51,799 nt of DNA from Candidatus Babelota bacterium (lineage in GTDB: Bacteria > Babelota > Babeliae > Babelales > Babelaceae), in NCBI GenBank assembly GCA_003484685.1, contig DNBB01000031.1:7713-59511 (forward strand), read 5' to 3'. Each line of letters opens with the position of its first letter. The first letter of the stretch is position 1. Below, piece after piece: positions 13,975-15,261 of the stretch. The notes under the pieces were generated by a model. The model ran no database searches, had not been told where the DNA came from, and worked only from the letters and a program-made list of their open reading frames with translations. The position numbers were made by a program, and so were the translations under genes.

Positions 13975-15261
13975 TTACGCTGGTAACAGCTCAAAATAAA
14001 AATCATGCAAGAAGTACTTAGAGCTATTCAGCCACCAGTCAATTTTTATCTTCAGACCTGGCGCAATGCGGTAAGTCGCAGCACCATTATGGCCGCCAAC
14101 ATACGCACGCACATTTTCAGGGATACTTGGTGAGGTAACGTTAACCCAGAGCAGGTCACCATCAAAGCCGGTATGCAACGTGCATAACTCTTTTCCCTGC
14201 GAATCGTACACAACAAAAGCGCTTTGATCTTTAATAAAGACAATGCGTAATTGAGCGCCGGCAAATGCTTCTTCGCGAGGGCTCAACTCAATAAGATCGC
14301 CTGCTTGTGTCTTTACAATTACAGCATTAGAAAGATCATTTTTAATGAAGACCGCCGCCGCTCCCGTGGTGAGTTTAGGAACTTCTTTTGCACGGCGCAA
14401 GCCTTCTTGCAATGCACGATTGATTAACAATTGCGAACGATCCCAAAGCTTCTTTAGTTCTTCTGGACCCCGTTCGGCCCCTTCTTCAACCAATATACCC
14501 GCTTGTTTTAATTGATCTCCGACAAATTGAATTGTGCGTCCCGTAGCTTTGACTACTGTTTTGCCGCCTTTACTTATTGTTTGGCCAACAAATTCAGCAC
14601 CACTTCCAACAGCGCTCAATCCACTCTGTAATGCGTTAGCAACAGCGCTTACAAATGCATCAGATGCCGCAATCGCAGCATCAGTTACCGGACGTGTTGT
14701 TTCTACAATAAACTCGGCGCCACCTTTGGCACCTTCATAGACAATGCGTGCTCCTCCAGCAACAACCTCTCCGACTTTTTGTGCACCCTCCTTGGCCACA
14801 GACGCCACCGCTCCTGCACCTGATGCAACGGTTCTGCCCGCTGTCTCGGCTCCTTGCACCACCGCATCAACAACAGGTTTAGTGGTTTGGTAGATAACTT
14901 CTGCCCCTTTGGCAGCAGCATCACCAACGGCTTGAGCGCCAGTAGCTACTGTCTTACCCACTGTTTCTGCCCCTTGAGATACAACATCGCCAACCTTTTG
15001 CGCACCGCGCGCAGCGGCATCTCGAGCGGCTTCTACACCTGTTGAAACACCCTTGGCAACATCTTCAGCTCCTTTACGGGTCGTTTCCCAACCAGATGAA
15101 ATATCCTGCGAAACAGCTTCGCTGCCCTTAACCACCGTCTCATGCGCGAGTTCGGCACCTTTTTTAATCTGTTCACCCAAAAAACCAAGCGTGGCTCCCG
15201 CATGCATCAACCCCCAAGAGAGCATTACGATGCCAAGGACGCCTATAATATGCTTGTTCAT
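13975..15261 (-). CDS. secreted protein with Ala/Gly/Val-rich 11-residue repeats and the family C-terminal module, paralog-family member 1
   Basis: 428 aa with a signal peptide (MNKHIIGVLGIVMLSWGLMHAGA). Residues about 33-265 are xGAxxVGxxVx 11-mers. The C-terminus reads GLKIKIDWWLNSSKYFLHDFYFELLPA. Strong SD aaaaaggag. Confidence 0.8.
   Translation of the reverse strand: MNKHIIGVLGIVMLSWGLMHAGATLGFLGEQIKKGAELAHETVVKGSEAVSQDISSGWETTRKGAEDVAKGVSTGVEAARDAAARGAQKVGDVVSQGAETVGKTVATGAQAVGDAAAKGAEVIYQTTKPVVDAVVQGAETAGRTVASGAGAVASVAKEGAQKVGEVVAGGARIVYEGAKGGAEFIVETTRPVTDAAIAASDAFVSAVANALQSGLSAVGSGAEFVGQTISKGGKTVVKATGRTIQFVGDQLKQAGILVEEGAERGPEELKKLWDRSQLLINRALQEGLRRAKEVPKLTTGAAAVFIKNDLSNAVIVKTQAGDLIELSPREEAFAGAQLRIVFIKDQSAFVVYDSQGKELCTLHTGFDGDLLWVNVTSPSIPENVRAYVGGHNGAATYRIAPGLKIKIDWWLNSSKYFLHDFYFELLPA
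14467..15165 (-). repeat. coding tandem 11-residue (33-nt) repeats
   Basis: KGAEDVAKGVS TGVEAARDAAA RGAQKVGDVVS QGAETVGKTVA TGAQAVGDAAA KGAEVIYQTTKPVVDAVV QGAETAGRTVA SGAGAVASVAK EGAQKVGEVVA GGARIVYEGAK GGAEFIVETTRPVTDAAI .. Confidence 0.75.

Follow-up and report, generated by a model that had tools for sequence, protein, structure and literature searches.

Long amphipathic helices built of 11-residue repeats are the defining feature of eukaryotic lipid-surface binders (synucleins, perilipins and apolipoproteins), and they are thought to discriminate between surfaces by subtle chemistry. A 51,799-nucleotide stretch of contig DNBB01000031.1 from a Candidatus Babelota bacterium, analysed here in full and referred to as the window, encodes a 428-amino-acid protein (protein A) with a long run of such repeats, and this raises the question of whether a bacterium has come upon a helix of this kind independently and what the helix would do there. 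The initial annotation had described the repeats as resembling those of synuclein, apolipoproteins and late embryogenesis abundant (LEA) proteins and had suggested that they coat a membrane or lipid surface. Our analysis indicates that the repeat is real and longer than first described, that it is an independently arisen bacterial example, predicted to be exported from the cell of a host-dependent lineage, and that adsorption to a lipid surface is the reading best supported by the available comparisons.

Architecture of protein A

Protein A and its parts occupy the following positions of the window.

13975 to 15261, minus strand: coding sequence of protein A, 428 amino acids, stop codon included (list of open reading frames; orthologues in two further assemblies)
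15193 to 15261, minus strand: residues 1-23, signal-peptide-like N-terminus (MNKH, core IIGVLGIVMLSWGLM, and A-G-A before T24)
14374 to 15165, minus strand: residues 33-296, continuous amphipathic repeat region (autocorrelation, Fourier analysis, helical wheel, unit parse and hydrophobic moment)
13978 to 14370, minus strand: residues 298-428, all-beta C-terminal domain with 11 strands (AlphaFold2; hhalign against the protein B family)

The repeats had initially been placed at 14467-15165 on the minus strand, which corresponds exactly to residues 33-265 of the 428-residue open reading frame (ORF). All of the 11-mers quoted at that stage are found there (KGAEDVAKGVS at residues 63-73, RGAQKVGDVVS at 85-95, QGAETVGKTVA at 96-106 and TGAQAVGDAAA at 107-117), as is the longer recurring unit at both of its places (GAEVIYQTTKPVVDAVV at 119-135 and GAEFIVETTRPVTDAAI at 181-197).

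The protein had also been called secreted, and its N-terminus, read from the sequence, is indeed signal-peptide-like: K3 and H4 are followed by a 15-residue hydrophobic core (best 15-residue hydrophobicity mean 2.28, from residue 5 on) and then by A-G-A ahead of T24. Both orthologues described below retain small residues at positions -3 and -1 of the putative cleavage site (S-G-A and S-G-G). We infer that protein A is exported by the Sec pathway and cleaved after this N-terminus.

The database representative of protein A, P0001, differs from the window protein at one position only (A106V), which is immaterial to the results and is a natural polymorphism between assemblies of the same organism. 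Codon 106 (approximately 14944-14946) specifies Ala in the window and Val in P0001, on the apolar side of its 11-mer. P0001 was used for orthologue periodicity, angle binning, moment and composition, conservation, the unit parse and helix propensity, and the window translation was used for autocorrelation, the Fourier spectrum, local phase, the comparison of ORFs, hydropathy and the N-terminus.

A single helical period over some 260 residues

Residue similarity within the repeat region is strongly raised at a lag of 11 (z = 8.0 with BLOSUM62 and 5.2 by identity, against 1000 composition-preserving shuffles). Autocorrelation is also high at lags 22, 33 and 40 (z = 8.8, 6.0 and 9.0; 1000 shuffles) and at lags 4, 7, 18 and 29 (z = 2.6-6.2), with the lags in between depleted. 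A series of 4, 7, 11, 18, 22, 29, 33 and 40 is the expected product of a helix with about 3.65 residues per turn, and Fourier analysis of hydrophobicity found exactly this, as residues 33-296 share one phase-coherent period of 3.65 residues per turn with a power of 430-490, compared with 42-52 ± 12 for the highest peak obtained after shuffling. A power of 430 at this period was reached by 0 of 500 shuffles (mean of the best line, 42 ± 11). The hydrophobicity spectrum holds no competing heptad or beta signal, the power being 11.5 at the heptad period of 3.5 and 2.8 at the beta period of 2.0. When the best 150-residue stretch of each of the window's 39 long ORFs was scored, protein A reached 303 and the runner-up 111. 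The 11-residue (11/3) periodicity proposed at the outset is thus borne out by the lag-11 similarity together with the Fourier peak, and it is real and far above chance.

Followed along the sequence from residue 21 to about residue 296, the hydrophobic moment shifts its local phase smoothly and without jumps. The apolar stripe is therefore continuous, and it extends about 30 residues beyond the end point first given. A parse of the region into units, made by hand, anchored on x-G-A starts and checked for contiguity, yielded 17 11-mers, three 7-mers, two 18-mers, one 4-mer and one 15-mer, together 263 residues over 72 turns, or 3.65 residues per turn, and unit lengths of 4, 7, 11, 15 and 18 all keep the helical phase. 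The early estimate of about 20 imperfect 11-mers over residues 33-265 was therefore close in number, but only 17 of the units are 11-mers, the others being of different lengths, and the stretch reaches about residue 296. The consensus is [K/R/Q]-G-A-[E/Q]-x-V-G-[E/D]-[T/A/V]-[V/A]-x, with glycine at position 2 in 16 of 19 units, and 14 of the 19 match the pattern x-G-[ASGVW]-x-x-[VIALFT]-x-x-x-[VIALTFG]-x. No tandem repeat was detected in the DNA of this region, which argues that the periodicity is old and has been maintained in the protein, rather than being the outcome of a recent amplification of DNA.

Chemistry of the predicted helix

Residues of the repeat were binned by their angle from the local hydrophobic moment. 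None of the 92 residues within ±60° of the apolar centre is charged, and only 3 of the 137 within ±90° are, so that the amphipathic segregation expected on a 3-11 helix projection is present. The apolar face spans 180° and is composed of adjacent stripes of glycine (16 of 24 residues between -60° and -30°), valine or isoleucine (30 of 46 between -30° and +30°) and alanine (12 of 22 between +30° and +60°). On the polar half, Lys and Arg are intermixed with Asp and Glu, and the acidic residues are just slightly more central.

The repeat is rich in small residues (A 19%, G 15%, V 15%) and in beta-branched ones (26%), with approximately two Val or Ile per 11 residues, and Leu and aromatic residues are nearly absent. 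The two prolines in 233 residues are both conserved and both lie inside 18-residue units. On the HeliQuest (Fauchère-Pliska) scale, residues 33-265 have a hydrophobic moment (muH) of 0.32-0.34, a hydrophobic fraction of 0.42, an aromatic fraction of 0.03, a charged fraction of 0.22 and a glycine fraction of 0.15. Computed in the same way, the whole-region moment is 0.336 for protein A and 0.297 for alpha-synuclein residues 1-89; the scale gives 0.30 for alpha-synuclein 1-89, as in the published table (PMC5889406, Table 1). That table lists muH, hydrophobic, aromatic and charged values of 0.30, 0.47, 0.02 and 0.24 for alpha-synuclein, 0.35, 0.37, 0.01 and 0.23 for Plin3, 0.257, 0.35, 0.002 and 0.15 for Plin4, and 0.39, 0.40, 0.065 and 0.35 for ApoA-I (PMC5889406). 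In bulk chemistry, the repeat of protein A falls between alpha-synuclein and perilipin 3, whose helices it exceeds 2.6- to 3-fold in length. Its grand average of hydropathy (GRAVY) is +0.02, compared with 0.05 for alpha-synuclein, and the net charge of the repeat region is -3 in protein A and -6 and +3 in the two orthologues. The mean helix-propensity penalty is 0.49 kcal/mol/residue, much like that of alpha-synuclein (0.48) and above those of the GCN4-p1 and Lpp coiled coils (0.38-0.40).

Orthologues conserve the stripe

An exhaustive HMMER search of 1.84 billion representatives identified only two true relatives of protein A, P0002 (408 amino acids [aa], 67% identity) and P0003 (376 aa, 40% identity). 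A word-indexed homologue search with the full protein returned the window's own cluster and one orthologue only, a scan of JGI metagenome contigs with a profile of the C-terminal domain found no relative, and the only match in a scan of a genome collection was a Candidatus Babeliaceae metagenome-assembled genome. P0002 is carried by this genome, deposited as 'uncultured Candidatus Babeliaceae bacterium' (Dependentiae/TM6). By these searches, protein A represents an orphan bacterial family, predicted to be exported and so far confined to three related uncultured genomes.

Both orthologues have the architecture of protein A, and both have its periodicity (periods of 3.64 and 3.63 and powers of 398 and 418 for P0002 and P0003, compared with approximately 53-55 ± 13 for shuffles). 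The repeat regions of P0001 and P0002 differ by one indel only, of exactly 22 residues. Glycine is the best-conserved residue of the repeat, being 70% identical in P0003 compared with 37% overall. Since the periodicity is kept despite indels, what selection appears to preserve is an unbroken stripe and the placement of the glycines, not the sequence in detail.

The remaining HMMER matches are weak and confined to the repeat region, and these proteins are analogues. One of them, P0005 (L008, 5001-7454), is unrelated to protein A and has a similar repeat (period 3.65) attached to a Lipase_3/Phospholipase-like domain. Several others, P0007, P0008, P0009, P0012 and P0014, are uncharacterized proteins from other metagenomes with similar xGAxxVxxxVx repeats; periods across the set that includes P0005 are 3.64-3.67, and P0009 has a signal peptide. 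Together, these six proteins may constitute an unannotated convergent class of bacterial amphipathic-repeat modules.

Resemblance to known lipid-binding families

A kinship with the synuclein, apolipoprotein, perilipin or LEA families did not hold up, as no profile matched at threshold and no related sequence was found in the PDB. Pfam hmmscan of protein A (E ≤ 1) gave no Synuclein, Perilipin or LEA_4 match, and neither Pfam nor NCBIfam produced anything at threshold for protein A or for the three products encoded next to it (proteins B and C and a 53-aa peptide, described below). The sole match in a PDB sequence search with the repeat was JetC (E = 0.1), which is due to chance. Below threshold, protein A matched Senescence (20.2 bits; cut-off, 24.6), Collagen_mid (18.9 bits; cut-off, 31.1) and, over residues 51-140, Apolipoprotein (PF01442; 18.4 bits; cut-off, 90), and P0003 matched Phasin_2 (16.6 bits). 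The only lipid-binding families among the subthreshold matches of the two repeats are Senescence (spartin), Apolipoprotein and Phasin_2. As judged from these profile and sequence comparisons, the likeness of protein A to synuclein, perilipin and apolipoprotein helices is a convergent analogy and not homology.

The analogy is nevertheless a detailed one. The lipid-binding region of alpha-synuclein consists of seven imperfect KTKEGV 11-mers within residues 1-89/95. It shares with protein A the 11/3 period (3.67 residues per turn, compared with 3.65) and an apolar face of Val, Ala, Gly and Thr with a glycine stripe beside it, and the two are close in muH, charged fraction, glycine content (0.15 in both), aromatic content, GRAVY and helix propensity. 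Protein A differs from alpha-synuclein (PF01387) in that it has neither the KTKEGV consensus nor any sequence homology and lacks the lysine pair that flanks the apolar face. Its net charge is about zero, whereas that of synuclein is positive. As a bacterial protein it has a putative signal peptide, and it ends in a folded beta domain where synuclein has an acidic tail.

With the perilipins (the giant helix of 33-mers in Plin4 and residues 114-204 of Plin3), protein A shares very long tandem arrays of 11-mers made of small, weakly hydrophobic residues with few aromatics, and the Plin3 values given above bracket its own. The helix of Plin4 does not fold in solution, length determines how strongly it binds lipid droplets, and targeting needed more than 66 aa, and roughly 132 aa (PMC5889406), a requirement that the repeat of protein A (approximately 260 residues) exceeds. 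Unlike the strict 33-mers of Plin4, however, its units are heterogeneous (11, 7, 18, 4 and 15 residues), it has more Val and Ala and less Thr, and it is predicted to be exported, while the perilipins (PF03036) are cytosolic and carry a four-helix bundle in place of an all-beta domain.

The exchangeable apolipoproteins (apoA-I/A-IV/E, PF01442) are secreted with a signal peptide, as is predicted for protein A, and contain long 11/22-residue runs, comparable to the peaks of protein A at lags 11 and 22, and the two conserved prolines loosely recall apolipoprotein proline punctuation. In contrast to the apolipoproteins, protein A has a charged fraction of 0.22 rather than 0.35 and only those 2 prolines in 233 residues. 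A class A charge pattern is not evident in it, Asp and Glu having a slight tendency toward the centre of the polar face. In group 3 LEA proteins (LEA_4, PF02987), too, the amphipathic repeats are 11 residues long and contain much Ala, Gly, Lys, Glu and Thr, and helix formation is conditional. The label 'LEA-like' nonetheless fails on hydrophilicity, given the near-zero GRAVY of protein A and its wide, Val-rich apolar face.

Among bacteria, effectors such as Coxiella CbEPF1 and Mycobacterium marinum MirA reach lipid droplets by means of amphipathic helices. In the literature on secreted bacterial proteins with 11-mer amphipathic helices, we found no tandem 11-mer repeats of the type present in protein A.

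The C-terminal domain and structure models

The initial annotation had assigned the specific function of the protein to a C-terminal family module, and such a module is present. AlphaFold2, run with a five-sequence alignment, modeled residues 298-428 as an all-beta domain of 11 strands, with a predicted local distance difference test score (pLDDT) of 81 and a predicted template modeling score (pTM) of 0.77. hhalign matched this domain to the family of the co-encoded 181-aa protein B (92% probability, E = 5.7e-7, over the last 33 columns), and the two align coherently across the full domain, with the common motifs K-N, G-x-D-x-W, G-x-x-G and WW-x-N…LHD…FE. From this alignment, the domain of protein A is homologous to the whole mature part of protein B.

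A Foldseek comparison of the model with the PDB and BFVD returned no match with an E value below 0.01 or a TM-score above 0.48. The best matches (E ≥ 0.01, TM ≤ 0.48) were generic beta-sandwich proteins, namely the pilin FctB, thaumatin-like proteins and MoHrip2. An aegerolysin-like fold, guessed from the I-x-I-K-N of the first strand, was unsupported by Foldseek and was dropped. What is new in protein A is the joining of a very long synuclein- or perilipin-like amphipathic repeat to a new beta domain.

The full-length AlphaFold2 model (three sequences) has a pLDDT of 38 and a pTM of 0.25. Residues 2-298 are helical in it at low confidence, as four long helices with breaks at 99-103, 174-177 and 240-244.

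A lipid-surface helix or a helical bundle?

Of the readings that we considered, the best supported takes the repeat of protein A to be a 3-11 amphipathic helix that folds conditionally and lies flat when adsorbed to a lipid surface, and we give it an even chance of being right. Flat-lying amphipathic helices are the binding mode of alpha-synuclein, the perilipins and the exchangeable apolipoproteins. On its own, the weakly hydrophobic stretch of approximately 260 residues, rich in Gly, Ala and Val, would have little stable structure. Contact with lipid would turn it into a single amphipathic helix, very long and slightly unwound (3.65 residues per turn, '3-11' type), whose 180° Gly/Val/Ala face would occupy the interface of a membrane leaflet or of a neutral-lipid monolayer and whose mixed-charge face, with a net charge near zero, would be turned toward the water. 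Avidity would come from many weak contacts summed along the helix, and a specific partner or activity would be contributed by the C-terminal beta domain, a paralogue of protein B. The folding upon binding, like the lipid binding itself, is a prediction.

This reading is based on the coherence of the stripe, the phase-preserving indels, a chemistry like that of synuclein and perilipin and the low helix propensity. It is further supported by the lack of a competing periodicity, the subthreshold matches to Senescence, Apolipoprotein and Phasin_2, the lipase-fused analogue P0005 and what is known of secretion in the Dependentiae. Cultured members of this phylum are diderm intracellular parasites of protists that possess Sec and type II secretion components, one species having a signal peptide on 44% of its proteins, and that shed apparent outer membrane vesicles inside the host (PMC6561590, PMC4776705). 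Candidates for the surface that protein A would bind are the bacterium's own envelope, outer membrane vesicles, and a membrane or lipid droplet of the host. By analogy with Plin4 (PMC5889406), a charge close to neutral and an apolar face of small residues suggest a preference for surfaces rich in packing defects or neutral lipids over anionic bilayers.

Several observations weigh against lipid adsorption. Lys and Arg are not concentrated at the boundary between the polar and apolar faces, unlike in synuclein and class A helices, and a net charge of about zero means that no electrostatic attraction to anionic membranes is to be expected. The full-length AlphaFold2 model is uninformative, and with three family members only, the evolutionary evidence is thin. 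Moreover, the apolar positions of the repeat fit the hendecad coiled-coil pattern equally well, and the conserved glycine stripe beside the valine stripe could reflect tight helix-helix packing instead of lipid contact.

These last two points lead to the strongest competitor, which we regard as unlikely: the repeat may be a hendecad (11/3) coiled coil or helical bundle that buries its Gly/Val/Ala face by self-association, whether two to four chains come together or antiparallel hairpins form. Such a near-straight rod or stalk would display the beta domain without any contact with lipid, perhaps spanning the periplasm or projecting from the cell, and bacterial surfaces commonly carry rods that end in a globular domain. 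Positions 3, 6, 7 and 10 of the 11-mer, which are the apolar ones, form the classic a-d-e-h pattern of hendecads, and a period of 3.63-3.65, near the ideal 3.67, is typical of near-straight bundles. The core that these positions would provide is, however, made of small residues (Gly, Ala and Val), with about two Val or Ile per 11 and hardly any Leu or aromatic residues. The conserved glycine stripe, with its A-x-x-x-G spacing, would permit close approach of helices, but 15% Gly and 26% beta-branched residues give a poor helix propensity, like that of alpha-synuclein and worse than those of stable coiled coils. An apolar face of 180° is also wider than a two- or three-stranded core requires. 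The four long helices of the full-length model, albeit of low confidence, are in line with a bundle, while no coiled-coil family or PDB sequence was matched.

A bolder version of the lipid-surface reading would make protein A the bacterial counterpart of a perilipin or apolipoprotein, exported together with B, C and the small CX3C peptide described below. For an obligate intracellular parasite with minimal metabolism, the helix would coat lipid droplets or organelle membranes of the host, or it would solubilize host lipids and carry them to the bacterial cell. Once loaded with lipid, it would be docked by the beta domain to a receptor on the bacterium or the host, and together with P0005 the protein would define a convergent, unannotated 'xGAxxVGxxVx' class of bacterial lipid-targeting modules. 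We consider this full scenario a long shot.

Slightly less probable still is that the repeat is an LEA-like or hydrophilin-like protectant, a disordered protein of the periplasm or cell surface that would form amphipathic helices upon drying or osmotic stress and protect the envelope while the infectious stage is outside a cell. Amphipathic helices of 11-mers are indeed what group 3 LEA proteins consist of, and the periodicity, the high content of Gly, Ala, Thr, Lys and Glu and the low helix propensity of protein A are what such a protectant would show. Relatives of the organism, moreover, pass through an extracellular stage in which they have to persist without the host's shelter (PMC6561590). 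On the other hand, hydrophilins and group 3 LEA proteins are strongly hydrophilic, whereas the repeat, with its GRAVY of +0.02, is only 22% charged, LEA_4 was not matched, and a folded C-terminal domain with co-encoded paralogues points to a specific interaction rather than to bulk protection. Finally, that the periodicity is a low-complexity artefact of biased composition (A 19%, G 15%, V 15%), or the ORF not a real gene, has next to no probability and is excluded by the autocorrelation, the composition-preserving shuffles, the comparison of 39 ORFs, and the conservation of the ORF (67% and 40% identity), of its gene order in three assemblies and of the helical phase in orthologues with indels.

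If protein A binds lipid, it would offer a natural test of which features of such helices are essential and which are lineage specific (length, small apolar residues, neutral charge and the glycine stripe), and in the Dependentiae, a phylum that has hardly been studied, it would rank as a candidate effector or lipid-scavenging factor. If it is instead a hendecad bundle with a core of Gly, Ala and Val, it would represent an unusual coiled-coil design. In both cases, protein A stands for a small orphan family whose beta domain is new.

A conserved cluster of genes for putatively exported proteins

Protein A is encoded together with three smaller products, and a related gene remnant lies upstream of it.

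13801 to 13962, minus strand: ORF of 53 aa, 13 nt downstream of A, with a signal-peptide-like N-terminus and a twin CX3C pattern (C-KKG-C ... C-LQG-C) (list of ORFs)
13206 to 13751, minus strand: protein B, 181 aa, with a signal peptide (…VHA/GPW) and a beta domain homologous to the C-terminal domain of protein A
12551 to 13186, minus strand: protein C, 211 aa, with an N-terminal hydrophobic segment, a short helical stretch (…EGAEEKYETQDE…) and a beta-rich part; last gene of the cluster
15497 to 15598, minus strand: truncated remnant of a small secreted amphipathic-repeat protein (tblastn, 59% identity over 34 residues, E = 4.7e-11)

The genes follow one another in the order A, 53-aa peptide, B (two ORFs downstream of A) and C, with intergenic gaps of 12-49 nucleotides (nt). 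Both other genomes preserve the A-B-C order, with the three genes located downstream of recF-dnaN-proS-P-type ATPase-tyrosine recombinase. To judge from the predicted proteins, this is a cluster of conserved genes whose products have export-type N-termini. B and C have homologues only in the same three genomes, and hhalign detected no relationship of C to either A or B. A site resembling a promoter is present 35 nt ahead of the start codon of A, but such sites are no more numerous in the region than chance predicts.

The 53-aa ORF is called as a gene in other assemblies of this locus and has a 57-aa counterpart in L001 (9240-9413), from the related metagenome-assembled genome; in L004, from the third genome, no gene equivalent to it is called between A and B. 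Twin CX3C patterns are known from small helical-hairpin proteins held together by disulfides.

The reading frame of the remnant at 15497-15598 breaks after 39 codons. Its intact form is found in L001 (7521-7883), just upstream of the orthologue, and has 120 aa, about 60 of which have a period of 3.63. The N-terminus of this small repeat protein resembles the mature N-terminus of protein A (DFIKFLQQK compared with LGFLGEQIK). L004 has no space for the gene.

A gene for an XerC/D-type tyrosine recombinase (15648-16658) adjoins the cluster. On the other side, between an EamA gene and C (10414-12550), lie 2.1 kb with one unannotated ORF of 224 aa (11177-11851) that has no family match. The same interval in L001 (10919-13918) holds two AAA-ATPase genes (573 and 422 aa) and is a variable spot amid synteny. 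Between approximately 8000 and 12000 of the window, the GC skew turns from positive to negative near 10 kb, at a cumulative maximum, which is the signature of a replication terminus. Neighbors in the window include housekeeping genes (RNase Y, YmdB, RecA, IF3 and DnaB). A tRNA gene (53 bits) at 40601-40682 on the plus strand lies inside the listed ORF 40519-42018 of the same strand, whose true start is probably farther downstream.

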